This document shows, piece by piece, positions 128 through 54,786 of a DNA stretch of 54,786 bases. The notes under the pieces were generated by a model, which worked only from the letters and a program-made list of their open reading frames with translations, did no database searches and was not told the DNA's origin. The stretch lies in the IMG/VR virus record IMGVR_UViG_3300036826_000065, positions 1-54,786 of that record; one strand, 5' to 3'. Positions within the stretch are counted from its first letter, which is position 1, and the number at the start of each line of letters is the position of its first letter. This DNA comes from a virus (lineage: Duplodnaviria > Caudoviricetes). A program made the position numbers and the translations under genes.

Positions 128-524
128 ATCGCCGGACTAACTCAGCGATGCCTTTGTAGTCGATGATCAGTTGGCACTCCATCGTGTTGTTCTTCCGGTT
201 TTTAAACGGAATCAGATGGGCACGCCGACCATCGGGCTCGAGACCCAGGCTGCTGCAATCCAGCAGACAGCGGAACAAACTCTCCCGCGAGCACTCGCCC
301 AACTCGGGAATCTTCATCATGGTTGTCAGGGCCACGCGGATGAACCTGTCCGGTCGCATGACCGCTGGAAGCACGGCTTGCAGAGCCTTCTTGAACTCGT
401 CCCCCTGGAGCAGTTCCTTCACCGTCCTGGGCTGCTTCGCCAGTTGTTGCGCGGCTTGCTCCGCGACGGCTGGCTTATCCGCCGGGTCCACCGGCAGCAT
501 GGGTTGTTTGGTTTCGTCAGGCAT
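1..524 (-). CDS. recT: RecT-family ssDNA annealing protein, N-terminal part (continues at 54659..54302; about 293 aa in total)
   Basis: Manual translation MPDETKQP...RPDRFIRVALTTMMKIPELGECSRESLFRCLLDCSSLGLEPDGRRAHLIPFKN...CQLIIDYKG; ATG overlaps the YqaJ stop (TGATG). Confidence 0.9.
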   Translation of the reverse strand, partial: MPDETKQPMLPVDPADKPAVAEQAAQQLAKQPRTVKELLQGDEFKKALQAVLPAVMRPDRFIRVALTTMMKIPELGECSRESLFRCLLDCSSLGLEPDGRRAHLIPFKNRKNNTMECQLIIDYKGIAELVRRSGDVSYVHADAVYSNDEWSYAYGTEAHLKHTPNAKDRGPDRV

Positions 525-1492: not shown

Positions 1493-1722
1493 TACCGTTT
1501 CCCCTTGCCGACAGCCACTGGCCGTCTCAGCGGTAATGGCTTGGCGACTTCCAAAATCAGGTCGGTCATTTCGACCTCGCGGCAATCAGCGCAGAGCCAT
1601 CTGCCCAGGAGATATTTCACGCCCAGCTTCTCCCTGCAACGGTCGCAGATCAACGCCGTCGCCCGCTCGCCTGGGTCAGGCACTGAGGGCCTCCCCAGCC
1701 GCCGCGCTATTGGTTCTCGCAC
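1492..1722 (-). CDS. small Cys-rich (CxxC...CxxC) hypothetical protein
   Basis: CDRC and CADC; stop overlaps the YqaJ start; true start uncertain. Confidence 0.5.
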   Translation of the reverse strand: MREPIARRLGRPSVPDPGERATALICDRCREKLGVKYLLGRWLCADCREVEMTDLILEVAKPLPLRRPVAVGKGKR

Positions 1723-5900: not shown

Positions 5901-7292
5901 AACATAGGGACCAGCATTATACGCAACCAAGTAACCGATGGTGCCCGAACTCTGAACATAAGGTCGAGAGATGAACACATACACACTTGGGGAGGCCGTG
6001 GTCCCTGTTGTTACAAGTTGATAGAAATTGGCGTAACAGGTATTAGCAAGCGAACTATTATTGACGTATACTTCGTTCCAGTTCGGGATCAGCACGCCGC
6101 CCGTTGCATTGGAAATGTTGGCGCTGTTAAAAAGCGTGATCGCGGTAACGTCTGCAAAGCTCGTGACGTTGCTGGTGATACGCACTTTTCTGAACAGCCC
6201 GCCGCCGCTTGGAGCCTGAATCGCATTGTCAGCCGTGGAAGCGGTCTGGAAGCCGCCGTCCGCGACGACATAGGCATTGCTGACATAGATGCCTTGCTGG
6301 TTCGGCTTGCCGATGATGTTCAAGATCTGCTGCGTGTAGTCCCACTTGATATTTCCGTCGCCGCCAAAATGACCAGCGGCGTCTTTATACTGCACCGACT
6401 GAGTAACACCTCCCGGCGCGGTCCCGCCCGCGACCGCAGAGAAGTCGATCTCCTTCCACTGCGGAACCGTGGGGTCGAAGTACCAGTAGGTCGATCCGGC
6501 CTTATGGGCAATGGCTCCGTAGGCTGATACCGGCCCATTGAGGGTTGCCGGGTCGGAGTGACTCAGCATGTGGTAACCCTGCGCCGTGACGAACCCGGCG
6601 GCTGCATCGATCCAGGCGTTACAGCACAGGTGCTGGCCGATGATCTGCGATATCGTCCCGTTGGAAGTCGAGGCCCAGAGCAGCACGTCGGTCCCGGTGA
6701 ATGCATGGCCCGCCAGAGCCACCGGAAAGTTCAGCGCTCCCGCCAGCGAGGGGAAGTCGATGTAGCCGCCCCAGTAGGGCGTGGCGTGAGATGACAGATA
6801 AATCCCCGCGCAATCGATGCCGCCCTGGGGGATGCGCAACGAGTTGTATGCCGTGCTCGTTGGCAATGCCAAGTAGTCGGTTGTGAACTCGATGCCGTAG
6901 CCCGCCTGGGTATTGATCTCCGCGCCCTGGTCGGCGTTGAGGATCGTCTCGCCGGTCGATCTAATGAACGACATCTGCGTGCGCAGGAACGCGCCCGTGT
7001 CGTCATAAGCGAACAAGTGCAGGTCGGAGCCAACATTGCTTCCCGTTTCCGCGCCCTCCTCCGCGAACGCCCAGCGGGAAGTATTGTCGTTGTAGAAAAC
7101 GAGCTTGTCTGGAAACAGCGCACTAGACTGCTTCTTGTCGGCTGCGGTGAAATCTTCCGCCACGCTTACCAGCGAAGCGTTGTGTAAGTTGTGCTGGTTC
7201 CCGTCAATGTCGGACAACCAGGGCGTCTGCGCGGCGCCACTGCTTGATCCGCCGGTCGGAGAGCCTTTCTCGTAGATCCAAGATCGTGCCAT
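2982..7292 (-). CDS. long tail fibre / receptor-binding protein with internal duplication
   Basis: 1436 aa, G/S/T/N-rich; ERMRI...GYVGINN.P...LHVKG fibre repeats; last large tail gene. Confidence 0.8.
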   Translation of the reverse strand: MARSWIYEKGSPTGGSSSGAAQTPWLSDIDGNQHNLHNASLVSVAEDFTAADKKQSSALFPDKLVFYNDNTSRWAFAEEGAETGSNVGSDLHLFAYDDTGAFLRTQMSFIRSTGETILNADQGAEINTQAGYGIEFTTDYLALPTSTAYNSLRIPQGGIDCAGIYLSSHATPYWGGYIDFPSLAGALNFPVALAGHAFTGTDVLLWASTSNGTISQIIGQHLCCNAWIDAAAGFVTAQGYHMLSHSDPATLNGPVSAYGAIAHKAGSTYWYFDPTVPQWKEIDFSAVAGGTAPGGVTQSVQYKDAAGHFGGDGNIKWDYTQQILNIIGKPNQQGIYVSNAYVVADGGFQTASTADNAIQAPSGGGLFRKVRITSNVTSFADVTAITLFNSANISNATGGVLIPNWNEVYVNNSSLANTCYANFYQLVTTGTTASPSVYVFISRPYVQSSGTIGYLVAYNAGPYVYTAGATGTINNVMGFWCDGGAYGGGATSTIGNWFCFIGSNPAATTITNLYGVRMEALSSGQHNYAIFTQQSSTANDSWAMYNTGDAPSYFGGKVGIKTAPTWPLQVMGVSGSPSIYASIGYIHSEDGFYTPAPSYQAIQATTGGVYCNGVGIISSSISPYKGGYIDLPRLQGGINFPQPLLNASFPDGWTDVLLWASSANQPPAAKVVLTTHLCCNAWINAASGFVTAQNVHMKAHASTADLNPPGGGYGVFAFQGNSTYYYWDDTPSPTLPAGWKTLNFNTLASIGGAGTDQAIQYYKTGTGITGEAGFAWDYTNKILSLNPGILRIASDVTNQISMTYANDTSYFYPYIAFSRHRGTLAAPTKIQSGDILGGVNWYGSGNGGAAILCTAVTVSASPNYYVTGALSFLVGDGSGGGSNATSLELRSTYARFYESVGIGDAPWNTLSVRGDIGAYATANTSSSAKIAASIYLGDPIYYNASYYAAAPGLSAIWETASGQTSGLAFYTYAGGTTRTERMRIQYNGYVGINNPAPQTFLHVKGTSNSVVGIECEQGFIQSNGGLYVDVATNYNSIQTVGGIVALGRIGVFPAFTPDLGSGLTGVTGLFVTSNATNNLLVDCYDSANDPTRVPGFIGRRAYYTGGLPGSGVFQNLPSGLTLMSIGGRGAHSGGFISAASASITFVTSEAWSGSAWGTDIQFNVTPNTQSSRYAKMWLHNTGQLHVRGQVTGENPNPPNDDQTNARSVGVYLENGNFRAADSHGGAAFMMTSTGGFGSANLPIPGTGVGGLAYQSGSTYYYYTGTGWGTVNFATTGAGVTSVNGMSGPAISIAGSTGVTASNGSNTVTLSIGQPVGTTNDVTFRSVQCSGAPGTGIIFQYSGGSNFQVDNLGNVSCMQININGILSADSGGKWLRTVQTNNHVYGGDFGIIGGGVTSYGNHTGLTVASGAVVALKINNADVNVRIIGGIICYETEP

Positions 7293-7293
7293 G

Positions 7294-10200
7294 TTAATCT
7301 CCCGCCGCCGTGATGGTAACCGACTCCAGCGGTCCCAGCGTTATTGTCGTCGCGGCGTCCCATAGCGGATCGCCCGCTTGCGGCGTGATGATCACGTTGT
7401 GCGTGCCCTTGACGTTGGCGATGTACAGCGCACGCCCCTGGTAATCCGCCAGCGCGAGCAGATGCACCGGCACATCGTTGGTGGAGCAGTCCACGCGGAT
7501 CGTCTGGTCGGTGACGCGGGCGAGCCAGAACGTGCTGCCAGAAACGTCTGGGTCGTTGGCAGATGGACCGATCTCGCGCACGCCCGGAGGTTCCGCGAAG
7601 ATGAAGATCTCGCGCATGCACGCCGACTCCTCATCGGTGATCCGCCCTTGATCATCGACCAGGAAGCCGCCGACCAGGGCGACCATGTTCTGCAAGTTCT
7701 CGATGCGCAGCCGCAATTCAAACGACACGCCAGGAGCCATGACGCTGGTGTCGGTCGTCTCAGTGAAGTAGACCCAATCGCGAGCTTCCACGATGCACAA
7801 CGACGTGTTGTCCGGCGGCGTGTCCAGCGGCGGGTTGACGGTGATGCGGATGTTTGTGTTCGCCGTGATGGCGCGAAACTGTCCGGCGCCCTTGCCGCGA
7901 ATGATGCGGAATATGTTGCCGACCTCCACGCCAGGATCGAGGCCAGCCCAGCCTGGGCGGAAGCCGGACTGTGCATAGCCTACAGAGTTATTCCACAGGG
8001 AATCCTCAACCCAGGTTCCGCCCGCGTCCCAGGAAGTCGGCTGCGACCGGGCGATCAGAACATCCCCAGGCTGTAGGGGATCACCGGCCATCGGGTCCGG
8101 CGTGACCGTGAACGATCCGGCGCTACTGTTGAAACCGATCACCTTGAAATTCCACAGGGGTGCAGAACCATCGCTGGCGTCCGCGACCGCTGTCAGGATG
8201 CGATTGTTCCAGTTATCGGTTGAGCCGATGAAGTCGTTCGACTGGATCGTGTTCGCCGCAACGCCGGTCACGACCACGCCAGCCACGCCACTGTGCCAGA
8301 CATGCTTCGCCTGGATACGCACCTTGCGAGCGGACTGTTCGGGAAGCTCGTGCGTCATGGGATGGACGGGACCGTTGAACGTGGTGCTCGTTGGTAGCGG
8401 CGCGACCGTGCTCTGCTGCCAGCCGATCAACCGCCGGTCGGTCCCCGCGTACAAATCCCAGGTGTCCCAGGAGCCGCTGGTCGCTGGCGTCATGTCGAGA
8501 TGCACGCCCTGGCCGGTGACGCCCGCAGGAATCCAGAGTGCAATCGGAAGAGACGGAATCGTGTAGCCCGCTGGCCCATGCTGGCCTACCGCGACGTAGA
8601 TCGTCATCGGACCATTCAGCGTGCCGCCTGGGACCAGCGTTGCGCCTAAGATCCTGGGCTGCACCTGCGCGGGAAATGTGTTGATGACCATCTCGCCGCT
8701 GACGAAAATGCTGGGCGCCCAGACGCCCTCGCGAGTAATGTTGTAGTCCTGCCACAAATCAAACGAACGCTCCATCGCATCGGTGTATACCGGATCGCCG
8801 GCAACCGGCCCAATACGATTCGGCATCCACGCGAGCCCATTGATGGAGGGCAGATGCTCCGGTATCACCGGGTCGGTCGGCACGTCGGCTGGCTTGGGAC
8901 CGGCGGTGAAGTCGTACATCGAATCGGTCACGCCGGAGCAGACGATATCGATGGAGAAGTCCGGGTTCAGCGTCCAGCGCTGCACGCGCCCTTTCTGGTA
9001 TGCGCTCGCGCCCGCAGGTAGCCGCGAATGCTGGACGCCGATAATATCGCCGCACTTGGTCTGCATCGCGAGCAGAGTCGTGCGGAACTGCATGTTGCGC
9101 GTGTTCTGCGGTTCGGTCGGTCCCCAGCCGCCCAGTTCCTCGCGCAGCCTTGCGACGAGGATGCGAGCGGCTTGCGACTTGGTGGACACGCCGACAAAGC
9201 TCATCTGGTTGCGCGTATACATCGGCGCCGCGCCGTTACCGGCGAATATCGCCTGATCAATGTCGTAAACGGAGATGGTGTTCAGGGCCCAGCCGGAGCC
9301 GGTCTGTGTCTGATCCGCCGCAAACTCCTCATCGCCAAATTGACCATCGAGCCAATTGAACTGCGGCGCCATCGGCGTTGCCTGAAGCGACTGGTACAGG
9401 ATGGTGTCTCGCGTGAAGCCCTGGCCCGTGAGCACGGCGGCGTTCTCGCGGATTCCGATCCAGAGCTTGCCATTGACGAAGGTGTAATACCCGCAGCAGC
9501 AGTTCAGAATTTCCTGAATCCAGTCCTTCAGCGGCTTCTGTTCTTTCAGCACGCCGCGAAACTTGAACTGCGATTCGTTCTGGGTCGGCACGATCATGCT
9601 GGGCACGATCTCCTCGCAGATCGCCGCCGCCGCGAGCGCCGCGTCCAGGTCGAAGTAATTCTCCATCTCGTTGGCCGGGATGGTGCCGATGATATCGTTG
9701 GTCACTTTCTCGCCCAGCCCGCGCAGGAAGACGTTGATCGCGATCCAGACCGGGTTACTGAGTCTCTGCTGCCAGTTGCGCGTCTTGTCGGCGTTCCACG
9801 ACCAGCCGTACATGCCGCCGACCACGGTGACGGTCATGTGCCGGTCCACAACCTGCTTCAGTTGCATGCCCGCGTCATCGGTGCGCCGCACTTCCGCGAA
9901 CGCCACGCCAGCGGCATAAGTGCTCTGCGCCGGAACCGCGCCCCAGGGCGAACTGCTGAGTTGAAAATATTCCGTTGTTAGATTTGCCGGATCGTTGCCG
10001 TTGATCCCGCGAAAGCCGCCGTTGTGAACGGGATCGTGCGGCGGCTGGTCGTCCAGCTTGTGCTTGAGCAGGTTGGTCGCGTAGCCCGCAATCGGACCCT
10101 CGCTGACGATGCCCAGGGCGCTGTAGAACTCGCTTTCTTCGCGACCGGCGGCGACGTCGCACACGACCGGCATCTCGTGGTCGGACCAGATCTCCTGAAT

Positions 10201-27947: not shown

Positions 27948-30900
27948 TCACTCCGTGAAATCCGTTCTTGCGCTGAAGCTCTGGAACTGCGGCATCGGCG
28001 TCGTGCGGAGCTTCGGCGCGGCCACCGGCTTCCTGGCGCTCGCGGGTTCGTTCTTGCGTTCGGTCGAGGTCAGCCGGTCTTGGAGATCCTGCCAGCGGGC
28101 CTCGTTCCAGCTTTCAAACCGCATGCTCGCCGCCGCCGCACGTGCGTAGATCCGGCAATTCCCGGCGACGAAGACTTGCCCATTGCGTCGGCAGATCAGC
28201 GTCCCGTTGGGGACCGTCGCGCAATATACGGTTCCTTGATGCTGGACCGTGCGACCGATAAATCCACGCTGTCCATTGGCGCCGCCATCTAGATACGCCC
28301 GCTTTACATGGGAATTCTCATGTACATGGAATTGATCGCGGGTATTGTCTCCGGTGCGTCCCCTGATTTCGTAAGGCCGCGATTCCCTGCGATGAGATCT
28401 GGGCGCACTCCCCAGCTTGAGAAAAAGTTCCTGGTAGTCGTCGGCTAACTTCTCGCAGACGGTCGCGATCACTCTACAGTCGCCGGATTGAAGCCAGCCA
28501 TCGCCCAGGACTGCCGTCTGAAGAAACGCCTCGATGACGTCCCGTGACGACTGCTTGATCCACGACGGGATGCGGCGGCTTTCCTGCAATCGCCCCCAGG
28601 GCGCCACCTCATCGAATAACTGCTTGGAGGTCGCGGTGAACTTATGGACTCCGTCGTTCCAACTAAATCGCCAGGGAAGCCTGTCCAGTAATCGGGCGAT
28701 GGCTTCAACGTTCTCCTTCTTGGTTTGGCAAATGCTGACCAGCCGCCGCACCGACCCCTCGTGCTCATTGATCGCCGCCGAACCCTCTGTAATCCACCAG
28801 CCATAGAACCGCGCCAGATCCATCGCATCAACATGTCGCTCCGGCTCGATCTCCATGCCGGAGTCACTCTTATGGCTCGCAGGAATCGTAATCTGTGGTG
28901 CGCCACGCTCCAGCCATTGGCCGGTTAACTTGATCTGATGCCGCTGGGTTAATTCGCGGGCGAGCGTGACCTGGGGACCGACTACACCATTGCGCGAGGG
29001 AAGATAAGTGACCATGCGGTGAGCAGGCGTCGTGAGGATATCGATGCGCCTCCCCTGGAGATGCACCATGTCGCCGCTGTACTGGCGAATGATCAGGTCG
29101 GATGGCCGCTGGAATTCGATGGCGTCCGTCTCCAATTCCACGGTCGCGACCTTCTGGCCGGAAAGATCGATGAATCGCTTCCATCCCTCGTCGGTCAGCA
29201 CCTCTGTCGAGGCGTCGAAGCAATCGAGAGCCTCGTTCCGCTCGCGGTGCTTTTCCCACTGGGTCTTCTTCATGCCGCGCACCGTCGATGTAACCAACCG
29301 CTCCGCTGTTAGCTGTTCAAAGTACTCGCGTGAGTAATTGGGGAAGTGGCAGAAGCCGACCGGCCAGGATTCGCCCGCGCTCAGGTCCGGCGTGCGGCTC
29401 CGCAGCCAGCGGTAGAGTTCCTCCTTCGCGATGTCCACGTTGACCGGCCAGAGCCGGATGCCGTACTTGAGCTTGCTGCCATGGGGGCCGACCTCCACCA
29501 TCGAGGCCGACCCCACCAAGGACGCGGGCCTGTTACTCCCCTTAACCCCCATCACGCGCATCGGGCTCATGCGCCGCACGTAGTCGTAAACCGCCATCGT
29601 GTTGAAGCCGGTGTCGATGGCGAGCTTGGCGATCCGGGTCGGCTGACCGTACTCGGTCGGAATGTCCTCGTCCAAGAGCTTGGTGATGTTCTCCCAGACC
29701 TGCGGCTGCGACGTGTCGCCGTCGAACACGCGATAGTCCACAGACCAGCTATGCCGGTCGCGACCCCAGGCGACGATCTCGCATTCCAGCCGCCGCGCCT
29801 GGACGTCCACGCCAGCGGTGACCAGGATGCCGCCCTCCGGCACCACGCCCAGCATGTAATCCTCGCGCCGCTCATAGAGCCGGTCAGCGTCCGGCGCCTC
29901 CGCGACGTCCAGCCAGGGCAAGCCCAGGATGGTATTAACGAAGATCTGCTGCTTCTGCGGGTCTTCCCCGGCCTCTTCGCGTTTGCGGGCGACGTCCTCC
30001 CAGGAGAGCCAGCCGACCGGCGAGTAGAGCGACGACAGGTGGTAGCCGTGCGTGCGCGGGTTCTCCGCGCCGTCCGGCCTCCACTCGCCACGCGGAAGCA
30101 TGTACGCCTTGTGGTGGTTCGCCAGTCCCTCGCCGCAGCCCGCGCAGTGATAGCGGGCCGTCTCCGGCTTGCCGTGCTGCCAGCGGAGTTGGGCGAACAC
30201 CAGGACCTGCTTCTCGCCGCAGTGCGGACAGGGCACCCAGTATTGCCGCTTGTCGCTGTCCTCGTAGAAGCGCTCGATGCGCGAGTGTCCGCTGACGGTC
30301 GGCGTCGAAACGATGAAGATCTTCCGGCGTGCGAAGTTCGTCGTGCGGGCGATGGCGAGTCCGCATGGTTCGCCCTCGCCTTCGACGTCGCCTTTATAGC
30401 CATCGACCTCATCGAGGAAGAGATACCGCGCCGACATACTGCGGAGTCCCTTGGCTGAGTTAGCCCCGGTCATTACCAGTAACCCGCCAGGGAATTCCTT
30501 ACTAAGTAGCGTGTTGCTGCTATCTCTAGATCTGGAGTCTTTCACCCGCGTGCGCAGCACGACGGAGTCTTCTATGAGCGGGCCGATGCGTTGCTTACTG
30601 TTGCGCCGCGCCATCTCGATGGTCGGTTGCACCACGAGCATGGGACCGGGCGCCATGTGGATGACGAAGCCGACCCAGTTATTCCCAGCTTCCGTCCCCC
30701 CGATTTGGGCCCCCTTCTGGAACACGACCGTCTCGACGCGGGAAGCCGGGGAGAGATCGTCCATGATGGCGCGGAGAAACGGCGCACGGGAAGTGCGCCA
30801 CGGTCCCGGCTCCGGCGACGAACGCGCCGATAGCTGACGGAACTGATCCGCCCATTGACTGATCGTGAACGCGGGGTCAGGTCTGGCTCCGTCGCGGGCT

Positions 30901-30959
30901 GCGCGATCATACACCGCAGCCGCGTCCGCGATCCTCTCGCCAATGAGCGCGACGTCCAC
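27948..30959 (-). CDS. terL: terminase large subunit (GpA family) containing an intein
   Basis: KGAQIGGTE, LFLDEVD, STPT, VPCPHCG, GVDVQ and RNEALD motifs. Confidence 0.95.
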   Translation of the reverse strand: MDVALIGERIADAAAVYDRAARDGARPDPAFTISQWADQFRQLSARSSPEPGPWRTSRAPFLRAIMDDLSPASRVETVVFQKGAQIGGTEAGNNWVGFVIHMAPGPMLVVQPTIEMARRNSKQRIGPLIEDSVVLRTRVKDSRSRDSSNTLLSKEFPGGLLVMTGANSAKGLRSMSARYLFLDEVDGYKGDVEGEGEPCGLAIARTTNFARRKIFIVSTPTVSGHSRIERFYEDSDKRQYWVPCPHCGEKQVLVFAQLRWQHGKPETARYHCAGCGEGLANHHKAYMLPRGEWRPDGAENPRTHGYHLSSLYSPVGWLSWEDVARKREEAGEDPQKQQIFVNTILGLPWLDVAEAPDADRLYERREDYMLGVVPEGGILVTAGVDVQARRLECEIVAWGRDRHSWSVDYRVFDGDTSQPQVWENITKLLDEDIPTEYGQPTRIAKLAIDTGFNTMAVYDYVRRMSPMRVMGVKGSNRPASLVGSASMVEVGPHGSKLKYGIRLWPVNVDIAKEELYRWLRSRTPDLSAGESWPVGFCHFPNYSREYFEQLTAERLVTSTVRGMKKTQWEKHRERNEALDCFDASTEVLTDEGWKRFIDLSGQKVATVELETDAIEFQRPSDLIIRQYSGDMVHLQGRRIDILTTPAHRMVTYLPSRNGVVGPQVTLARELTQRHQIKLTGQWLERGAPQITIPASHKSDSGMEIEPERHVDAMDLARFYGWWITEGSAAINEHEGSVRRLVSICQTKKENVEAIARLLDRLPWRFSWNDGVHKFTATSKQLFDEVAPWGRLQESRRIPSWIKQSSRDVIEAFLQTAVLGDGWLQSGDCRVIATVCEKLADDYQELFLKLGSAPRSHRRESRPYEIRGRTGDNTRDQFHVHENSHVKRAYLDGGANGQRGFIGRTVQHQGTVYCATVPNGTLICRRNGQVFVAGNCRIYARAAAASMRFESWNEARWQDLQDRLTSTERKNEPASARKPVAAPKLRTTPMPQFQSFSARTDFTE
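28158..29222 (-). mobile_element. 355-aa intein with LAGLIDADG homing endonuclease
   Basis: Starts CFDASTEVLTDEGW; TPAHRM block B; GWWITEGS and AVLGDG; ends VYCATVPNG...AGN followed by +1 Cys. Confidence 0.92.
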
Positions 30960-31546: not shown

Positions 31547-32053
31547 CTAAGTCAGGTTAGTTTCCGCGAAGTCGGTAAATACCCGGCGGATTTCCTCCTC
31601 CAAGATGGAGAAAACCTTGGCCTCGTCCTTCTCCCCGGCCAGGAGTGGCGCGACCCTGGCGGGAATATTCAGACACGCATCGCGAATCATCCGAAACCGG
31701 CTGAAGGCGGCGCGTTCGACAGCGGTGCGGGAAATCAGTTCGCCAGCGCGAACCTCAAGCTCCAGCTTGCGGCGTTGCGCGTCGTAGACTTCCTTCAGGG
31801 CGCGAGCGTCGGCGTACATCATTCCGGCGACCGGCTCCGTCGCGGAGGTCGTCGCGGCGCCCTGCTTCTGCTGCGGGCCGCTGGGGCCAGCGGAGATCTT
31901 GCTGCGGGAGTGCGCTTCCCATTCGCGATCCGCCGCTTCGCTATCGATGGTGCCGTCGGCGTTGCGCGTGATGCGCCCGTCGCGCACGGCGTTAGCGATG
32001 GTCTGTGGGTTCACGCCGCGCTGGACGGCGTATTCAGTGATCGAAACGTCCAC
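31547..32053 (-). CDS. terS: terminase small subunit (Nu1-like)
   Basis: N-terminal wHTH (SITEYA..RGV...AVRDGRI); A.RRKLE...GELI; RDA.LNIP.R. Confidence 0.85.
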   Translation of the reverse strand: MDVSITEYAVQRGVNPQTIANAVRDGRITRNADGTIDSEAADREWEAHSRSKISAGPSGPQQKQGAATTSATEPVAGMMYADARALKEVYDAQRRKLELEVRAGELISRTAVERAAFSRFRMIRDACLNIPARVAPLLAGEKDEAKVFSILEEEIRRVFTDFAETNLT

Positions 32054-32419: not shown

Positions 32420-33780
32420 CGATTCACCCATAAGGTCAACAAAATAATAAGTTACGACACTTAACCTGCTATAATGAGGTTTAAGGTGGTAGTAAGTAGC
32501 CGCCGAACCCGCCCAGGCCGACCGGCCAGACCCCCAGGAAAATCCCCGAAGCGGAAAAGAGCCCTCGCCAAACATTGTCATTTGTGGGGAGGTGTACGCA
32601 CCCATGCAGGCGCGAAGCCGCCGGGGAGCCACCGCCTTCGGTAGGACCCGCAAACCGCTGAAAACAAAGGAGATTCCGGTTTTAAACCGCGAATACACAA
32701 ACAGAAAGTGTACCTTTGCGGCGCAAAGCGTTGTAACGCTCGTACACCTCTGATTCCATTGGGTTTAGCTGGGTCAGGTTTGTGGAGCCGTGCGAGTCGG
32801 CGTAATCCATTGAAAACAAAGGGCTAGTCCTGGGCGCATGGTGTCGGCGCATGCCCAGGGCGCACGCGGCGCACGGTTTAAGCCATTGAAAACAAACGGC
32901 TGACAGCCATTACCGCCGCCTATTACCGCCGCTAACCGTGGCGTGCCCAGGGTGCCAAACGCCTATCTTCGGAGCATTATCAACGGTTTAGCAGGAATTT
33001 ATCCCCAGGGCGCAAGTTTTTGGTCGGAATCGGCTGTCGGCACGCCGAAACCGCTATGTAATTCTTTCAAAACTGCGACTGTATCAGACTAGCTTGTCTG
33101 ATATATTGCAGATATCTGAGTCCGAATATGCTGCTTTACCAGGGCGCATGCGGTCGGCACGCCCTGGGCGCATGCTGTCCGATACCTGGGCGGCGCATCC
33201 TGGGCGCCCTGGGCGCACGTGCGGGGTATTCCTGGGCATGCTGGGCACGCCCTGGGACGGCTGACGGTCGGCGCCCTGGGCATGCTCGCCGCTCGCCGAC
33301 CTGGGGACGGTCGGCGCATCCTAAAGGGACGGCTATCGGGCGCCCAGGTCGCGACCTGGGACAAATGGGCTATGGCTATTTATTCACTGGAATGTATATT
33401 TATCCAAACGGCTGTCGGCACGCCCTAATCTCTGCTAGGTTTCTAGCATGTTTTTCCACAGGATACGGGGAGGATAAATTCGCTTTACTTTCACTTCTTT
33501 TCGGTTTTCGTTCGCCTATGGGGAATACCCTGATACCGGGGAGTTTCCTGAGGCGCATCCTAGGGCCTGCAAACGCTCAGGAACCCTATGTCCGTTTGTG
33601 GGATTATCAATAACTTACAGACATACTGCTACAGACTGTAGCACTGCTTTATACAGTGTTTATGCATCCCCTGGGGCGGCGCATCCTGGGCACGCCCTAA
33701 AACACGTTGGGCGCCCTAAGTCTTGCGACCTGGGCGCCCAATGGAATGGTGGGGCTGTAATGAGGTATTGCGGGGTAACC

Positions 33781-34056
33781 TTACGGCACGAGTGAAACCA
33801 GTGTGCAATGCTCACAAAACAGTGCGCCGTTACCGACCGCAGCAAACGGCACGCCCTGGGCGCATCCTGGGCACACGGCACGCAAGTCTAGATCGCACGT
33901 TGCGCCGTACCAGGGCGCGTCAGCGGTCGGCGGTATTGCGCCGCTATGCCAATCCTCTACATCGGCAAGCGTCATACCTAGGCACGCACGCACGTCAGCG
34001 TGCCGCGCAAGTCGCAGAGCAAGCGACAGCAAGGTTTCGATAACCTGGGCACGCAT
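33781..34056 (-). CDS. small hypothetical protein with CxxC pairs
   Basis: GGGAG SD; CPGC and CEHC. Confidence 0.55.
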   Translation of the reverse strand: MRAQVIETLLSLALRLARHADVRACLGMTLADVEDWHSGAIPPTADAPWYGATCDLDLRAVCPGCAQGVPFAAVGNGALFCEHCTLVSLVP

Positions 34057-34057
34057 G

Positions 34058-34288
34058 CTAGTTGGACTCCCTGGGCGATTCCATTGAATCCAATTCGACA
34101 GCCGCTATCGTCGTCAGGTCGTATCCCTGAGCATCAACACGATCAATCAAGCTTGACCATGCGGCTGTCAGGGACTCGCAGTGAAAGCAGAATAGGCGCG
34201 TGCGCCCATTGTTCAAATGGAACCGAAAAAAGAACAACGATAGGCGCGTATCGTTGTTGATCAACTGAGTATGTCTGTTAATCGTCAT
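34058..34288 (-). CDS. small hypothetical protein (ribozyme cassette)
   Basis: ATG 9 nt after the ribozyme-borne GGGAG. Confidence 0.6.
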   Translation of the reverse strand: MTINRHTQLINNDTRLSLFFFRFHLNNGRTRLFCFHCESLTAAWSSLIDRVDAQGYDLTTIAAVELDSMESPRESN

Positions 34289-34297
34289 AGTGGGTAT

Positions 34298-34348
34298 CTC
34301 CCTACGCCTCACGGCGTTTCGTCCCATCCCAGGGACTCATCAGGGGAG
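34298..34348 (-). ncRNA. type I hammerhead ribozyme, copy 1
   Basis: CUCCC-CUGAUGA-GUCCC(UGGGAU)GGGAC-GAAA-CGCC(GUGA)GGCG-UA/GGGAG. Confidence 0.92.
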
Positions 34349-35065
34349 TTAGGATGCGAGCACAATAAAGGGAGAGTCGGCGTTAATCGCGAGTCCCTTC
34401 GCCCTTAAGCCGACAACGACTCCCTTCGGGTCCAGAAATCGCAAGTCGTGCAAGTCGCCATCAATCACACGGTAACCATGCCACGTCTCAGGCAAAGGGA
34501 AACCTTTGCGCACATGAAACACGACAGCGACATTGACGCCTAGCGCGAGTACTCGCAGGGACTCAGTTAGATTCTCGCCACTGTAGCTGTATGTCAGATG
34601 GTAGTTAGGTAGCTGGCGCAAATCCGCTTTAGGTAGTTTGGTGTAATCGTAAAAGGTTACCTGGGGAAACGACCGCGCCATTTCTTTGGCTAACCACGGT
34701 AGATCACTCGTGCCGTTGATACGGACAGCTAAACGCATGCCGCGTTTGGCGGCGCGGCGCACGTACATGCCAATGTCATACCTGAGGCATGCCAGAAACA
34801 ATGCACGATTGCCAGCCAGCAACATAGTCTTGGCGACTCGTGCCGCTTGCACGTTGCGAAACCGCCCCATGCCAGCCATATTGAGACATAGCGCTATGCA
34901 CCATGCCGTTGCGCCTAGGCAGACATTGAGGACTCCTGAAGACATAGCTGGCGCCAGATACATAATCGCTGTCAGCCAGCCTAGGGACTCGCCCTTGACA
35001 GTCTTGTAATTGTCATCCTGCAATAGCCGTTTGTAACCGTTTGGTTTCCGTTTATTCGTCGTCAT
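34349..35065 (-). CDS. phage GP88-like protein
   Basis: C...C..CL..AG.G, RINGTSDLPW, FYDYTK, NYHLTYS, DGDLHDLRFLD and VGLRAKG motifs. Confidence 0.7.
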   Translation of the reverse strand: MTTNKRKPNGYKRLLQDDNYKTVKGESLGWLTAIMYLAPAMSSGVLNVCLGATAWCIALCLNMAGMGRFRNVQAARVAKTMLLAGNRALFLACLRYDIGMYVRRAAKRGMRLAVRINGTSDLPWLAKEMARSFPQVTFYDYTKLPKADLRQLPNYHLTYSYSGENLTESLRVLALGVNVAVVFHVRKGFPLPETWHGYRVIDGDLHDLRFLDPKGVVVGLRAKGLAINADSPFIVLAS

Positions 35066-35077
35066 AGTAGTTTGGGT

Positions 35078-35128
35078 CTCCCTACGCCTCACGGCGTTTC
35101 GTCCCATCCCAGGGACTCATCAGGGGAG
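35078..35128 (-). ncRNA. type I hammerhead ribozyme, copy 2
   Basis: Identical 51-nt core to copy 1. Confidence 0.92.
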
Positions 35129-35347
35129 TTAGCGAACCCGGAACACCGGACGGCGCCCACAGTCCTCCCCAGGGCGCACGGCAACGTTGATTCTACCGAC
35201 CTTGATTTCGGAACCGCCAGCTAACCACTGATACTTGCGCGGCGAAACCTTGACCCATGGACCATGCGCAAAGTTGTAGCAAGTACACTCCAGTACGGAG
35301 TGATCGAATTCAAACGTGGCGCCAATTTCCAGGTCGCGAAATTTCAT
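35129..35347 (-). CDS. small hypothetical protein
   Basis: MKFRDLEIG; coupled (TAATG); stop abuts the ribozyme. Confidence 0.6.
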   Translation of the reverse strand: MKFRDLEIGATFEFDHSVLECTCYNFAHGPWVKVSPRKYQWLAGGSEIKVGRINVAVRPGEDCGRRPVFRVR

Positions 35348-35571
35348 TAGCGTAAACCTCCATTGAGCAGCACACGATAAGTGTGATTCCCAGCAAAGTC
35401 GCTGTATCGGTATTCCACGCGATTACGATTCCGATAATCGCGTGTTGCGTCGTTATGGCCGAAGTAGTCACGAGTCCAATCTGTCGCCAGCCAGAGAAAC
35501 TCGCAATGAACGGTGACGTCAAATGACGTTTCCGTCTGGTTTTCAAAACATACGATGTAAGGTCTTTCCAT
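35347..35571 (-). CDS. small hypothetical protein
   Basis: ATG 9 nt after the ribozyme GGGAG. Confidence 0.6.
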   Translation of the reverse strand: MERPYIVCFENQTETSFDVTVHCEFLWLATDWTRDYFGHNDATRDYRNRNRVEYRYSDFAGNHTYRVLLNGGLR

Positions 35572-35580
35572 AGTGGGTAT

Positions 35581-35631
35581 CTCCCTACGCCTCACGGCGT
35601 TTCGTCCCATCCCAGGGACTCATCAGGGGAG
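35581..35631 (-). ncRNA. type I hammerhead ribozyme, copy 3
   Basis: Identical 51-nt core. Confidence 0.92.
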
Positions 35632-35871
35632 TTAGTGTCTCCAAAACTTGCCATTCGGACTGGCAGCGCCGTCAGGATTGATATAACCGTGGCATTCGTC
35701 AGCGGGTCTATACCACGTCAGCAATAGGGACTCTGACGGATTAGCATAGTGCTTAAGGTATCGGCGCATTTGCAGCATCGCGCCCTGATCAGTGTGCGCC
35801 GTCAGGCGAACATAATTTCGCTCGCCTAGGCTGTCGATAATCTCAATCGCGTATGTCGTGTAAGGTTTCAT
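35632..35871 (-). CDS. small hypothetical protein
   Basis: MKPYTTYAIE; bounded by two ribozymes. Confidence 0.65.
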   Translation of the reverse strand: MKPYTTYAIEIIDSLGERNYVRLTAHTDQGAMLQMRRYLKHYANPSESLLLTWYRPADECHGYINPDGAASPNGKFWRH

Positions 35872-35880
35872 CGTTTGTGT

Positions 35881-35936
35881 CTCCCTACGGCGCCGTGGGC
35901 GCCGTTTCGTCCCATCCCAGGGACTCATCAGGGGAG
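35881..35936 (-). ncRNA. type I hammerhead ribozyme, copy 4 (variant stem III)
   Basis: Same core; stem III is CGGCGCC(CAC)GGCGCCG, a different sequence with pairing retained. Confidence 0.92.
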
Positions 35937-36161
35937 TTAGGACAAGTCAGCCAGTAGCGCAACGACGGCGCCGATTACCGCGCCGCCTAGTCCGGTGATT
36001 GCCGCCCATGCGCCGGCTGACCAGACAGTGGGCGCCGCAACATGGAGTGTTGCCGCGACAGCTAGCGCGAGAAATCCGACCGCTGAAAGACCCAGGGCGC
36101 CGCACATGAAGTAGTCAACTACCGGGATGCCGTTTGTGTAACTGCGTTTGTTGTTTGTCAT
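35937..36161 (-). CDS. small two-TM membrane protein
   Basis: Two hydrophobic helices; first gene of the ribozyme operon. Confidence 0.6.
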   Translation of the reverse strand: MTNNKRSYTNGIPVVDYFMCGALGLSAVGFLALAVAATLHVAAPTVWSAGAWAAITGLGGAVIGAVVALLADLS

Positions 36162-36171
36162 AGGTAAGTCA

Positions 36172-36201
36172 ATCCTAGTGACTACTCCCCAAGGTAGTCA
36201 A
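36172..36201 (-). promoter_or_regulatory. promoter of the ribozyme operon with overlapping palindrome
   Basis: TTGACT-18 bp-TAGGAT; TGACTAC/GTAGTCA inverted repeat inside. Confidence 0.6.
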
Positions 36202-36862: not shown

Positions 36863-37011
36863 TGCACTTCCTCCGCGAGGAGGTCGAGAGCCATGTCGAT
36901 ATGGACGGCGGCGTCCCGCAGGTGGTCGATGGCGGTTTGGCCTTCGGCTTCCATAGCCGCGCCCAGTTTGATGATGGCGCTATTCGCGAGTTCTTTCCAG
37001 GTCGTCTTCAT
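36859..37011 (-). CDS. 50-aa hypothetical protein (not in the ORF track)
   Basis: MKTTWKELANSAIIKLG...; GGGAG SD. Confidence 0.55.
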   Translation of the reverse strand: MKTTWKELANSAIIKLGAAMEAEGQTAIDHLRDAAVHIDMALDLLAEEVQ

Positions 37012-37067
37012 GGTGGGTGTCTCCCTTAGATCTCAGCCTAAGGGGTAATCGCGCCTTCAAGTCAAGC

Positions 37068-45890: not shown

Positions 45891-47660
45891 TCACGCCGCG
45901 ATCCGTACCCTGGTCGTTACCTGGAGTTGCTTATTGTAAATCGCACGTTCAGGCTGCTTACAATTAGCAACATTCAGGCGAACCAGGATGGTGATTTCCG
46001 CCCAGCCGTGTGCGTAGCGTATGCCGCCAGCCGGAATCCAGTCCAGCAGGATGGCTTGTTGCTCCACCGGGTCGGTCGTTTGGAAAGCCTTGCGGGCTAG
46101 CCGCTGAATTGTGGCGAGGTCGTATTGCTCCGGCTCAACCTCTCCGGCTCCGGCTTCGATGCGCCGGTCCAAGAGGGCGAGTTCGGTTTTATATTTCGCC
46201 ACCAGCCCAGCATACTCCGCTTTGTCCTCGTCGGAGTCGGCGTCGATCTCCTTTCTCATCGCTTCCCGTCGCTTCTGATCCTTCCGCTTCCGCTCTTCGC
46301 GGAGGCGAGCCAGTTCGGCCTCGTCGTCCGGCGTGACGACCTCACCGAACTTCTCCGCGACCAGCGACTCCAACTGATCGCAGACGGCGGTCTTCAGCCC
46401 ATTCCAAACGCCGGGATGCAGAATGTCGGCGCGAACGGATTTGGAATCGCACTCGTAATGTCCCTCCGTCTTGTGCCGGTGCGTGCAGCGGTAGTACAGC
46501 GTGCGCGTGCCGTCGTCCTTCACCGCACTTCCATGCGCGGGCGCCATCGCTTTTTTGCACTCCTCACCGATGCCCTCGCCGGAGATCACGGTGGCGCCGC
46601 AGGAAACCAGCGTGCTGAGTATCGCCACCTGACCGCCGTCTTCGGCTCGCCGTGCGGGCTTGCCAGTGGACGCGGCGCCATTGCGCTTCAGGCCTTCGAT
46701 GATGGCCGCTTGCTCATCCGGCGTCCAGATGCCGCCACCGGGCATCTCGATCTTGCCAGCCCACTCCTCGCGGGGCTTGAACACCTTCACGGTGCGAACC
46801 TTGTGCCGCTCCGCTTCCGGGTTACGAACTTTTTTGGGCTCGATGAACTTGCGCTTGCCGTACCACCATTCGCCGCTGGAATAGGTCCAGTCGTTCGCGA
46901 TTGCGGCCACGGTAATCGGATTCCAGCCCAGCTTGCCGCCGGGAGTCTTGATGCCACGCGAGTCCAGTTCCCGGCAGATGCCACGCTGGGTGCCTTCGCG
47001 CCCCCCGGCCAGCGCGAGTTCACCGATTAGCTGCACGACTTCCAGTTCGTTCACGCGCCGTTCGTAGAAGTTCTGCGGTCTGCCGGTCGGAACTTCCTCG
47101 TTGGCGTTCAGAGCCCGCGCCGCGATCTCCCTGGCGGTCACCATGTGCCAGCCGTAGGGCGCACCGAAGTGCGCGAGGCCCTTCGCCAGCTTCGCCATCA
47201 CGCCATAGCGGGACTTCTCCGCAATGTCGTCCCGCTGATACTGGGCGACGGTCAGAAACATGTTCATCTGCATGCGGAACCAGCCGCTGTCCTGATACCA
47301 GCCCAGGTCGCCCAGCAGCACGTCGGCCTTCAGTTCGCGGAACTCGCGGATGGTTGCGAGCCCGCCTTCGACGTCGCGGGAGAAGCGGTCGATCCAGGGG
47401 AATGCGACGGCGTTCGCCACGCCAGCGCGGATCTGTTTTTTGGCGAGCCGGATCGAAGGCCGGTTGAAGTCAGTGCCGCTGTAGCCCTTGTCTTCGATCA
47501 TCAGTTCGGCGGGAATGTCGCAATCGTACTTGTCGGCCAGGAGGGCGAACTTGTTGCCCTGTCCGTCGAAGGAGTAGTTGCCGACCTGCTTCAGCAAGCT
47601 GACGCGCTTAATCCCGATTGCGATCCGGCGTGCCGGTCTTGGGAATGCTCTTGCGGCCAT
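45891..47660 (-). CDS. large serine recombinase (integrase)
   Basis: RVS..Q, D.GYSG...RP, DRFSR; recombinase domain PYG; Zn-ribbon cysteines and coiled coil. Confidence 0.92.
   Translation of the reverse strand: MAARAFPRPARRIAIGIKRVSLLKQVGNYSFDGQGNKFALLADKYDCDIPAELMIEDKGYSGTDFNRPSIRLAKKQIRAGVANAVAFPWIDRFSRDVEGGLATIREFRELKADVLLGDLGWYQDSGWFRMQMNMFLTVAQYQRDDIAEKSRYGVMAKLAKGLAHFGAPYGWHMVTAREIAARALNANEEVPTGRPQNFYERRVNELEVVQLIGELALAGGREGTQRGICRELDSRGIKTPGGKLGWNPITVAAIANDWTYSSGEWWYGKRKFIEPKKVRNPEAERHKVRTVKVFKPREEWAGKIEMPGGGIWTPDEQAAIIEGLKRNGAASTGKPARRAEDGGQVAILSTLVSCGATVISGEGIGEECKKAMAPAHGSAVKDDGTRTLYYRCTHRHKTEGHYECDSKSVRADILHPGVWNGLKTAVCDQLESLVAEKFGEVVTPDDEAELARLREERKRKDQKRREAMRKEIDADSDEDKAEYAGLVAKYKTELALLDRRIEAGAGEVEPEQYDLATIQRLARKAFQTTDPVEQQAILLDWIPAGGIRYAHGWAEITILVRLNVANCKQPERAIYNKQLQVTTRVRIAA
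45926..45971. other. candidate attP
   Basis: GTTGCTTATTGTAA-18 bp-TTACAATTAGCAAC (13/14 inverted arms) with central TT. Confidence 0.6.
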
Positions 47661-48952: not shown

Positions 48953-49154
48953 TCAGTCCCCTCCGCAGTGATCGTCACCGAATGCAGCAGATTGCGCGAG
49001 CGATCTCGCCATTCGATCTCGACGCCGCCAATTAAGTTGGCCCGCACTTCGGGCGTGGCGTTGATGATTTGTTCGGCCAGAAAGATGGCCGCTTCGCTGG
49101 GCGGCTGATCGCCGCAGCCTGGGTCGGCCCCGCGCAGATAATCAAGCTTGATTG

Positions 49155-54301: not shown

Positions 54302-54659
54302 TTACTCTTTGGGCGGCTCGCCGGTTTCCTGCGCCGCCGACATGACCCGGTCGCGGAGCTTCGGCCTTTCTTTCGCACCGGCCTCCAGTTGCTTCGCGCC
54401 TTCGTCGAGGACTTCTTCCCAGCCGCTGACATCCACGGCTTCGGTGTCCTCCTTCTCGATGACGTTGCGCACCTCAGGCGAGAGCGGAAGCCACTTGGAA
54501 TGGCGGCGGAAAACCGTCTTCTTCGCCATCTCGTCGAAATCGGTCACCCATGGTCCCTGATCCGGCGACTTACTGCGCTTGCGGATCTTCTCGATCTCTG
54601 ACGGGTTCATGACGATGAAATCTTCGCTACCGTCCTTGAATCGCACGTAGGAATAGTAA
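54302..54659 (-). CDS. recT: RecT C-terminal part (joined to 524..1)
   Basis: GPWVTDFDEMAKKTVFRR.SKWLPLS. Confidence 0.9.
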
Positions 54660-54786
54660 GCGACTCGATCCGGCCCGCGATCCTTGGCGTTCGGCGTGTG
54701 CTTTAAGTGCGCCTCGGTTCCGTAGGCATAGCTCCATTCGTCGTTGCTGTAAACCGCATCGGCATGCACATAGCTGACGTCGCCGG

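Follow-up and report, generated by a model that had tools for sequence, protein, structure and literature searches.

Four predicted type I hammerhead ribozymes, each complete, lie on the minus strand of a soil phage, between accessory genes, and we think it probable that they act as intercistronic mRNA-processing linkers that double as recombining repeats. The window, by which we mean the whole stretch of 54,786 nt that was analyzed, is a complete 54.8-kb temperate lambda-like siphovirus whose source is soil. A single minus-strand transcription unit, gA-gB-gC/gD-gE-gF, sits between its early and packaging genes, and each of the four intergenic gaps of that unit is occupied by the same 66-71-nt module. 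Ribozyme arrays in phages have been known since 2011, and as a general phenomenon they are not novel. Here, a sister phage (G001) reveals gene gain, loss, and swap at the hammerhead repeats.

The locus is an unusually clean natural test case. A short operon holds four minimal ribozymes that are nearly identical, each joined to a stop codon at one end and to a ribosome-binding site at the other, and a sister phage differs by whole cassettes at these junctions. Does the arrangement insulate expression? Is the ribosome-binding site freed by cutting? Do the repeats drive gene turnover? All three questions become testable at this locus.

The ribozymes and their modules

All four ribozymes sit within 1.65 kb, on the gene strand. 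The most upstream module, HH4 (35869..35939, minus strand), begins with the TAA of gA (35939-35937), followed by the hammerhead (35936-35881) with a predicted cut between 35886 and 35885; cuts are placed after A17 and given in plus-strand coordinates. The 3′ part of the module consists of GGGAG (35885-35881), the spacer ACACAAACG, and the ATG of gB (35871-35869); HH4 scores 83 bits with model R1. On the same strand, the HH3 module (35569..35634) runs from the TAA of gB through a 51-nt hammerhead (35631-35581, predicted cut between 35586 and 35585) and a Shine-Dalgarno sequence to the ATG of gC. The same order is found in HH2 (35063..35131), from the TAA of gD through the hammerhead at 35128-35078 (predicted cut between 35083 and 35082) and a Shine-Dalgarno sequence to the ATG of gE, and in HH1 (34286..34351), from the TAA of gE through the hammerhead at 34348-34298 (predicted cut between 34303 and 34302) and a Shine-Dalgarno sequence to the ATG of gF.

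The first-pass annotation of this DNA spoke of identical 51-bp repeats. This describes the three downstream ribozymes well, HH1 to HH3 showing no differences across the 51-nt ribozyme or, flanks included, across 56 nt (between HH1 and HH3 the identity spans 66-67 nt), but it does not extend to HH4, a ribozyme of 56 nt with a different, longer stem III (8 bp, CAC loop). In all eight modules of the window and G001, the TAA abuts stem I without spacing, and GGGAG, a spacer, and the ATG follow the cut. GGGAG is both the 3′ strand of stem I and the Shine-Dalgarno sequence for the gene that follows, whose ATG lies 5-12 nt further on. A GGGAGA-type ribosome site is also present at two ribozyme-free genes (37009-37025 and 7290-7303).

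The 28-nt core CTGATGAGTCCCTGGGATGGGACGAAAC occurs in four copies, all on the minus strand, against an expectation of 0 from 100 shuffles, and the pattern CTGATGAG...CGAAAC has no further site anywhere in the record. Each minus-strand copy reads, 5′ to 3′, UAA, CUCCC, CUGAUGA, a GUCCC-loop-GGGAC hairpin, GAAA, the stem III hairpin, UA, the cut, and GGGAG, with stem I as the open stem. As the criterion for a hammerhead core we used C3-U4-G5-A6-N7-G8-A9, G12-A13-A14, A15.1-U16.1, and H17 at the cut. The positions CUGAUGA, GAAA, and U16.1-H17 (GUA before the cut) are intact in the four window copies and in the four G001 copies. Both the MFE and the centroid fold of every window copy give the hammerhead three-way junction, with 5 bp in stem I, 5 bp in stem II, and 5 or 8 bp in stem III.

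An alignment of 10 sequences adds comparative evidence. In it, 95.8% of the cells pair, compared with 86.1% in shuffles (none of 500 shuffles reaches the observed value), while slid controls of the same alignment pair at only 42-51%. Two-sided changes are seen in 6 of the 18 pairs, five of them in stem III and one in stem II, and none of the 500 shuffles attains this covariation. That stem I and the core are invariant in this alignment is in part a consequence of the search pattern, which held both constant.

No Rfam family matches at its gathering score. Below threshold, the type III model RF00008 gives 41.4, 30.0, 28.6, and 27.2 bits against a cut-off of 48.5, with the stems mis-assigned, and RAGATH-1 gives 21 bits against 56.3. 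Taken at face value, the Rfam alignments imply a type III topology; we rejected it, since it leaves stems mispaired, whereas every copy folds perfectly as type I. The Rfam shortfall touches the curated-score criterion only, and not the definition of the motif.

A tertiary contact between stem I and stem II makes natural hammerheads fast at low Mg2+. In these copies we find no supported contact of this kind, whether loop-loop or pseudoknot: the candidate pairings between loop II and the flanks show no covariation between copies, and the potential pairing of UGGG in loop II with the spacer CCCA of HH1 to HH3 is not kept in HH4 or in the G001 copies. Because the ribozymes are minimal, with a 5-bp stem I and no supported tertiary contact, their cleavage speed at cellular Mg2+ is uncertain. 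Self-cleavage itself, and the resulting 5′-OH and 2′,3′-cyclic phosphate ends, are predicted by analogy from the established chemistry of the class.

The operon and its sister phage

The predicted cuts bound units of 300, 503, and 780 nt, exactly the sizes that the first-pass annotation had given. All genes of the unit are on the minus strand. The 300-nt unit (35586..35885) carries gB (35632-35871, 79 aa); the 503-nt unit (35083..35585) carries gC (35347-35571, 74 aa) and gD (35129-35347, 72 aa), whose stop and start overlap as TAATG; the 780-nt unit (34303..35082) carries gE (34349-35065, 238 aa). The first gene, gA (35937..36161), encodes a hydrophobic protein of 74 aa, its TAA being the first three bases of the HH4 module, and gF (34058-34288, 76 aa) lies downstream of HH1. 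gE matches Pfam GP88 (PF17338, E 1e-41) and phrog_1617, both families of unknown function. gA, gB, gC, and gD have no family match in Pfam or PHROGs, and gF has no family, only a sub-threshold Pfam match. For gB there are no relatives in IMG/VR, and the ESM Atlas gave only leads below 0.9 for gB and gD.

Just upstream of gA is a promoter-like site (36172..36201, minus strand; TTGACT, 18-nt spacer, TAGGAT, 9 of 12 positions), a consensus match only, in a window where the count of such sites is no higher than in shuffles. A terminator-like hairpin (36582-36565, minus strand), also a consensus match only, closes the unit preceding gA.

G001 is syntenic with the window at about 80-90% identity. 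We judge gC, gD, and gE to be real genes because their differences from the G001 orthologues fall mostly at third codon positions (33 of 52, 30 of 54, and 87 of 115, respectively); the gE protein is 95% identical to its G001 counterpart. The first ~115 nt of gF, 93% identical in G001, contain a terminator-like hairpin and then a T-run (34258-34233).

The order in G001 is gA, a PAPS-reductase gene, HHa, geneX, gC, gD, HHb, GP88, HHc, geneY, HHd, and gF. Three cassette-scale differences separate it from the window. One is a 266-bp indel of geneY plus a ribozyme, exactly in register between two modules; window positions 34351-34285 align to both HHc and HHd, and both edges of the indel therefore fall inside modules. 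Another sets gB plus HH3 in the window, gB having no counterpart in G001, against geneX, with the left edge at a module. The third is an indel of the PAPS-reductase gene, with its right edge at a module. The annotation had suggested that the units are exchangeable cassettes and had proposed comparing what lies between the ribozymes in related phages. The genes there do differ across these two genomes, and one indel has both edges in modules, so that the cassette reading is supported by this comparison, really but thinly at n = 2.

The same differences can be read as ordinary phage mosaicism at gene boundaries, in which the ribozyme repeats would be passengers, duplicated along with genes and without any particular role in recombination. 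This we regard as somewhat unlikely. Ribozymes are not needed for mosaicism here, since kilobase-scale indels and replacements also occur in ribozyme-free regions (for example, window 52199-49805 and G001 33501-34810). Two of the three array differences have one edge outside the modules, and the comparison comprises only two genomes. Passengers, on the other hand, fit poorly with the exact register of the 266-bp indel and with the modules themselves. HH1 and HH3 differ at 0 of 66 positions, including 27 positions in the loops, stem III, and spacer that G001 shows to be variable, whereas positional orthologues between the window and G001 differ at 10-14 of about 71 positions and orthologous genes differ at 13-32% of nucleotides. 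Judged by their sequences, the modules within one genome are homogenized (concerted evolution). Furthermore, for each of two pairs of segments the eight modules show every one of the four possible combinations, namely loop II (with CAA or not) with stem III (short or long), and stem III with the spacer (AAACG or CCACU), which indicates recombination inside modules.

In the reading that we prefer, of processing linkers that also recombine, the comparison with this one sister phage shows the modules to be recombining direct repeats. They are homogenized within a genome and mosaic from one genome to the other, and genes have been gained, lost, and replaced as cassettes with edges in the modules. 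Selection may have favored such recombination, or it may follow from the presence of repeats in a phage with RecET. Enzymes of the phage itself that could use the repeats as substrates are a RecT-family annealing protein (54302..54769, minus strand; its ORF runs off the record end) together with a RecE/YqaJ-like exonuclease (524-1585, minus strand). The sole integrase is a large serine recombinase (45891-47660), 10 kb from the array.

A stronger version, which we consider unlikely, is that the module of stop codon, ribozyme, and Shine-Dalgarno sequence is a dual-use linker: as RNA it would free the genes from one another and give each a standard leader, and as 66-71 bp of DNA it would provide the homology for RecET cassette exchange. 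If this were true, a gene dropped between two modules would be expressed independently of its neighbors; RecET could add, delete, or swap genes both within a genome and between co-infecting relatives; and cassettes would circulate much as in an integron, with no site-specific recombinase dedicated to the purpose.

What cutting would do to the message

As mRNA-processing linkers, and going by the known chemistry of the class, the ribozymes would divide the polycistronic transcript into linear messages that carry one or two genes. These would all start with a 5′-OH right at the ribosome-binding site, and end with two stable ribozyme hairpins and a 2′,3′-cyclic phosphate. Every gene would receive the same leader regardless of the sequence upstream, and the stability and translation of the genes would be uncoupled.

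Cutting might instead be chiefly a translational switch, with the ribosome-binding site locked in stem I until the cut and message separation secondary; cleavage would then time or couple expression, possibly modulated by a ribosome terminating on the adjacent TAA. The fusion of GGGAG to the 3′ strand of stem I, with the TAA unspaced against the 5′ strand in all eight modules, is what such a switch would look like, and in the uncleaved model the Shine-Dalgarno sequence is mostly paired (P(unpaired) 0.01-0.32). With 5 bp and -7.0 kcal/mol (bimolecular penalty not included), the product helix is weak, and release after cutting should therefore be fast. We nevertheless find the switch quite unlikely as the main role. 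The modeled cost of opening the Shine-Dalgarno sequence falls on cleavage from 1.7, 4.5, 4.2, and 6.2 to 0.2, 2.8, 2.8, and 3.5 kcal/mol in the four copies, so that unmasking is real in the model but modest, a gain of just 1.4-2.7 kcal/mol. Three of the four cleaved products keep the Shine-Dalgarno sequence ~60% paired with downstream sequence, the modules have no ligand-binding or regulatory extension, and the same ribosome-binding site is used without a ribozyme elsewhere in the genome. In the literature that we searched, there was nothing specific linking natural hammerheads to Shine-Dalgarno masking or to phage recombination.

The annotation had also proposed that ligation of the cut units would rebuild a hammerhead. 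It would, by topology: every unit has GGGAG at its beginning and, at its other end, a ribozyme complete except for that strand, and thus joining the ends restores it. RtcB-type ligases act on 5′-OH and 2′,3′-cyclic phosphate ends, which are the ends predicted here. A bolder extension of the dual-use linker would have some cut units rejoined by a host RtcB-type ligase into exonuclease-resistant circular mRNAs. That units are religated in this way, or by the reverse reaction of the ribozyme, into retrozyme-like circles is highly improbable, even though the GGGAG at the 5′ end and the CUCCC plus complete core at the 3′ end can pair: the rebuilt hammerhead is an intact self-cleaver that would cut the circle again, with no alternative fold predicted to silence it; the circular folds are not unusually stable and not viroid-like (z -0.7 to -2.0, 56-64% of bases paired); the units code for proteins; the Shine-Dalgarno sequence would be paired again in the circle; and no reverse transcriptase or RNA ligase family was found among the 69 window ORFs scanned with Pfam. 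For comparable arrays, the part of Perreault et al. 2011 available to us reports that circular or spliced products were sought and none detected (PMC3088659). Circular mRNAs are unnecessary for explaining any of our observations.

Relatives and known systems

The search for further arrays returned few relatives. Of 79 other viral loci with GP88 homologues, none has such a ribozyme nearby, and the cargo is therefore independent of the ribozyme. In viral contigs, the exact 28-mer has no matches, and the pattern CTCCCCTGATGAG..CGAAAC is found in four contigs: G001 has the array, while G002 and G003/G004 have single type I hammerheads. G002 is no clear case of this coupling: only a short ORF begins at the GGGAGG-ATG that follows the cut, and the long gene has a later start with a ribosome-binding site to itself. 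In genome contigs, the pattern gives 68 matches at 62 loci, nine of them followed by T-H-GGGAG. Eight of these nine come from a single contig whose four ribozymes were each counted in two overlapping loci, and the ninth is L056; the remaining genome-contig matches look like chance occurrences in coding DNA. Over 6841 nt the contig with the four ribozymes matches the window at 100% identity and is therefore the same phage; it is binned in a MAG with the title Blastocatellia bacterium. In 150 other genomes from the class of this MAG, model R1 found nothing, and a fifth, weak R1 match in the MAG was rejected (CUGUUGA core, inside an ORF). The pattern scan of metagenome contigs found only G001's own contig, a TerS query only G001 and a 5.4-kb fragment, and queries with gB, geneY, and gF no additional ribozyme-flanked relatives.

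Among sequencing runs recorded as RNA, none contains the stretch. In four soil DNA runs, contigs end at the ribozyme repeats, and none spans the whole module array. gB (35640-35853) has zero cover in these runs, from which we draw no inference. Two joints in run X6, 34288 to 35877 (28 letters on the shorter side) and 35478 to 35877 (20 letters), were rejected as cassette deletions because their sides are under 30 letters and their likeness under 95; the best explanation for them is a ~88%-identical G001-like relative with HH4-like modules.

The closest known systems are the prophage arrays of Perreault et al. 2011 (PMC3088659). As far as the available part of that paper goes, multiple hammerheads there flank single genes or short gene blocks whose identity is not constant, as in the triple array around ardA in Agrobacterium tumefaciens; processing into single-gene mRNAs is proposed, and three arrays cleave in vitro. 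A 2019 review, in the portion available, repeats the mRNA-processing proposal and calls the purpose of phage genomic hammerheads undefined (PMC6765202). The window shares with those arrays the clustering of coding-strand hammerheads within a few kb, around single genes or short blocks with varying cargo. Unlike them, as far as their published description was accessible, its four ribozymes are minimal type I hammerheads of one near-identical sequence family, its modules are fused unspaced to the stop codon and use the 3′ strand of stem I as the Shine-Dalgarno sequence, and a sister genome makes cassette turnover and repeat homogenization directly readable.

The likeness to mobile circular RNAs goes less far. 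Retrozymes and viroid-like circular RNAs with hammerheads were reportedly described by Cervera and de la Pena in 2020. As in retrozymes, hammerhead direct repeats bound each unit here, the predicted cut ends are 5′-OH and cyclic phosphate, and joining would rebuild the ribozyme. Retrozymes are non-coding and highly self-paired, are mobilized by reverse transcriptases in trans, and accumulate as circles. The high self-pairing of retrozyme and viroid circles is described in the accessible part of de la Pena et al. 2020 (PMC7761336). The window units, in contrast, are conserved ORFs under purifying selection and have no unusually stable fold.

Two other comparisons concern the parts of the module. 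In integrons, cassettes carry attC sites acted on by the IntI tyrosine integrase beside an attI/Pc platform; here there is no IntI tyrosine integrase, and the repeats are hammerheads and not attC-like imperfect palindromes. RiboJ-type synthetic insulators place a hammerhead upstream of a ribosome-binding site, where it strips variable upstream RNA and leaves a standard 5′ end. The window likewise has a predicted self-cleaving hammerhead upstream of the ribosome-binding site, but unlike the engineered RiboJ the arrangement is natural, comes in four repeats, and makes the ribosome-binding site itself one strand of the ribozyme.

Finally, Botstein in 1980 and later lambdoid work are said to have proposed that short conserved intergenic linkers offer homology for the exchange of unrelated modules. 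Unlike those linkers, the one in the window is an RNA enzyme plus a ribosome-binding site, repeated within one operon, and for that reason it may also cause intragenomic deletion, duplication, and gene conversion.

Hammerhead motifs and the modules that carry them

The 28-nt ribozyme core is present in four copies, all on the minus strand (HH4 first on the transcript, HH1 last), where chance would give none, and it makes the sole CTGATGAG...CGAAAC site in the record. Read on that strand, each copy runs UAA-CUCCC-CUGAUGA-GUCCC(UGGGAU)GGGAC-GAAA, then a stem III hairpin ending in UA, and then, across the cut, GGGAG. With an open stem I (CUCCC/GGGAG), loops closing stems II and III, and canonical core positions throughout, all four are, by sequence, complete type I hammerheads. 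Stem III has 5 bp and a GUGA loop in HH1 to HH3, and an unrelated 8 bp in HH4. From the type I motif, we predict cuts after the GUA triplet on the minus strand, between positions 35886 and 35885, 35586 and 35585, 35083 and 35082, and 34303 and 34302, which gives the units of 300, 503 and 780 nt already stated in the first-pass annotation.

We regard the hammerhead motifs on the mRNA strand as genuine. Minimum-energy and centroid folds both produce the exact hammerhead junction in 4/4 copies (-24.4 to -31.4 kcal/mol, z -1.8 to -3.2). In an alignment of 10 sequences (the four copies, four from a sister phage, and two single hammerheads of other viral contigs), 95.8% of paired cells are compatible with pairing vs. 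86.1% in shuffles, the invariance of stem I and the core being partly due to the search pattern that fixes them. Both sides change at 6 of the 18 pairs, none of 500 shuffles reaches the observed covariation, and slid partners pair only 42-51%. At the Rfam gathering score no copy has a match; sub-threshold matches to the type III model misplace the stems, and a type III assignment was rejected.

Each hammerhead is fused at its two ends to a stop codon and to a ribosome-binding site. The TAA of the upstream gene abuts stem I directly in every one of the four, and the GGGAG that forms the 3′ strand of stem I is followed 9-12 nt further on by the ATG of the next gene. A GGGAGA-type ribosome-binding site is also found at two window genes that have no ribozyme, so we infer that it is the phage's ordinary Shine-Dalgarno, and that the 5′ strand of the ribozyme evolved to pair with it. 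In transcript order, the array consists of gA (74 aa, hydrophobic), HH4, gB (79 aa), HH3, gC (74 aa) and gD (72 aa), HH2, gE (238 aa, Pfam GP88), HH1, and finally gF (76 aa). Ahead of gA lie a hairpin resembling a terminator (36582-36565) and a site resembling a promoter (36201-36172), both consensus matches only; the array is therefore probably a transcription unit in its own right, situated between the early genes and those for packaging.

The last gene has features of its own. A 10-bp hairpin, then CTTTTTT, occurs 30 nt into gF (34258-34233, minus strand). Identity to the sister phage is 93% over the ~115 nt that follow HH1 vs. ~80% over the remainder of gF, and substitutions in gF are weakly biased to third positions (14/29). 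The predicted HH1 cut together with termination at 34258-34233 would free an RNA of ~76 nt (34227-34302), and part or all of gF may act as an element at the RNA level.

Cassette differences between two phages and recombination of the modules

A pattern scan of IMG/VR finds one other record with such an array, G001 (53,525 bp, estimated complete), whose genome is for the most part syntenic with the window and roughly 80-90% identical to it. Four modules of this family, HHa to HHd, are present there. All read TAA-CUCCC...GUA-GGGAGA-spacer-ATG; loop II, stem III and spacer come in different variants. Its layout is gA, a PAPS-reductase-domain gene (PF01507), HHa, geneX, gC and gD, HHb, GP88, HHc, geneY, HHd, and gF. 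The genes common to both phages are real, as judged from the concentration of their differences at third codon positions (gC 33/52, gD 30/54, gE 87/115).

Three differences between the arrays are of cassette scale. First, a 266-bp segment of geneY plus a ribozyme is found in G001 only. The HH1 module (34351-34285) aligns to HHc and HHd alike, which places both edges of the segment within modules, the outcome expected of unequal recombination between one module and another. Second, gB plus HH3 stands where G001 has the unrelated geneX; on the left this swap is bounded by the module, including an identical ACACAAACG-ATG spacer, and on the right by the start of gC. Third, only G001 has a PAPS-reductase gene between gA and its first module; the right edge of this gene is the module's TAA, and its left junction is TAA-GGGAGACACAA-ATG. 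This junction (L075 9079-9095, that is, G001 49079-49095) has the stop, Shine-Dalgarno and spacer of a module with the ribozyme exactly absent; either the site is empty or the loss was precise.

The modules themselves recombine. HH1 and HH3 are identical at 66/66 positions from TAA to ATG, though their flanking genes are unrelated, while positional orthologue modules of the two phages differ at 10-14 positions and orthologous genes at 13-32% of nucleotides; homogenisation of the window copies therefore postdates the split of the two phages. Among the four G001 copies 6-15 positions differ, which shows that loops, stem III and spacer can vary freely. Moreover, among the eight modules we observe all four combinations of loop II (with or without CAA) and stem III (short or long), and all four of stem III and spacer (AAACG or CCACU). 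For such multi-nucleotide states this points to crossovers, or to conversion tracts whose ends lie in the conserved core between the variable segments. RecET-type annealing systems use homologies of a few tens of bases; the window phage encodes RecT and a RecE-like exonuclease, and the identities among its modules, at 51-67 bp, exceed that length. Mosaic indels also occur elsewhere in the two genomes, without ribozymes. The proposal that the ribozymes bound exchangeable cassettes is supported by these two genomes: cargo varies, one indel has both edges inside modules, and modules recombine.

The DNA-level argument is one of two genomes because the module family is rare and because contigs of a third, G001-like relative, in two soil runs, break at the repeats. 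A scan of metagenome contigs returned only G001's own contig, and one of genome contigs only the window's own phage. R1, a search model of the ribozyme family, detects copies neither in 150 other genomes from the class of the metagenome-assembled genome (MAG) described below nor in any of 79 other viral loci with GP88 homologues (79/79 absent); a regex finder on the GP88 loci gave the same result, with 0 matches on reversed controls. A single type I hammerhead is found on each of two unrelated viral contigs, G002 (L076 7165-7220) and G003 (L009 1303-1351); stem I is again CUCCC/GGGAG, and the cut site is GUC. Stem I of the G002 copy is abutted by the stop codons of the upstream ORF, and the start of the long downstream gene seems to lie further on, at a ribosome-binding site of its own.

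The phage carrying the array

Pfam and PHROGs scans of the 54,786-bp IMG/VR virus record that makes up the window, which has direct terminal repeats, show a temperate lambda-like siphovirus with nearly all genes on the minus strand. They identify a gpA-type large terminase (27948-30959, minus), small terminase (31547-32053), lambda-family portal, S49 head protease, head-decoration and tape-measure proteins, large serine integrase (45891-47660), C-5 DNA methylase, O-like replication protein, RecE/YqaJ-like exonuclease (524-1585) and RecT (54302-54769). Cut by the record end, the RecT ORF matches the Pfam model over positions 79-189 only; the ORF's missing 5′ part should span the terminal repeat and adjoin the RecE-like gene (region 1-523), where G001 is collinear. 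In a MAG titled Blastocatellia bacterium, one contig matches the window at 100% identity over 6841 nt. By this match it is the same phage, and its length is that of the phage, so it gives a host hint at the binning level only.

The large terminase (1003 aa) has a LAGLIDADG domain at residues 808-861, and residues ~581-934 (28157-29220) include weak matches to intein-bearing PHROGs. These 1.06 kb have no counterpart in the otherwise collinear G001 terminase, and look like an intein or homing-endonuclease insertion in one phage only. Upstream of the small terminase, ~1 kb (32850-33870) without a convincing gene is densely filled by a GC-rich motif around GCCCTGGGC, repeated in direct and inverted orientation (17 copies in the record vs. 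0.9 expected, 5 of them here), which may be a packaging-recognition or regulatory array. Some ribozyme copies have this motif in their long stem III as well (GGCGCCCUGGGCGCC in G001).

Probable fate of the transcript and comparison with known systems

From the chemistry of the class and from Perreault et al. (2011, PMC3088659), we infer that the ribozymes would cut a polycistronic RNA into linear messages. Each would start with a 5′-OH at its own Shine-Dalgarno and end in two ribozyme hairpins with a cyclic phosphate, which would standardise gene leaders and uncouple the fates of the messages. In our folding model, opening the Shine-Dalgarno costs 1.4-2.7 kcal/mol less after cutting, a modest effect. 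More speculatively, stem I would be hidden beneath any ribosome that terminates at the TAA next to it, so that translation and cleavage may hinder one another.

Nothing favours the other fate proposed in the first-pass annotation, the rejoining of cut units into circular mRNAs. Its topology is right, in that joining the unit ends does rebuild a hammerhead, but a ribozyme restored in this way would cleave itself once more. The 69 window ORFs scanned include no family of reverse transcriptases or RNA ligases, and Perreault et al. report circular or spliced products as sought and not detected. The circular folds are ordinary (z -0.7 to -2.0; 56-64% of bases paired), whereas PMC7761336 describes retrozyme circles as highly self-paired, and a retrozyme identity of the array was rejected; so was an integron identity.

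The array belongs to a known kind, the clustered hammerheads flanking phage genes of Perreault et al.; a 2019 review (PMC6765202) still calls the function of such arrays undefined. Two features go beyond this picture: the compact fusion of stop codon, ribozyme and Shine-Dalgarno in a type I format, and cassette turnover and concerted evolution seen directly at the modules.
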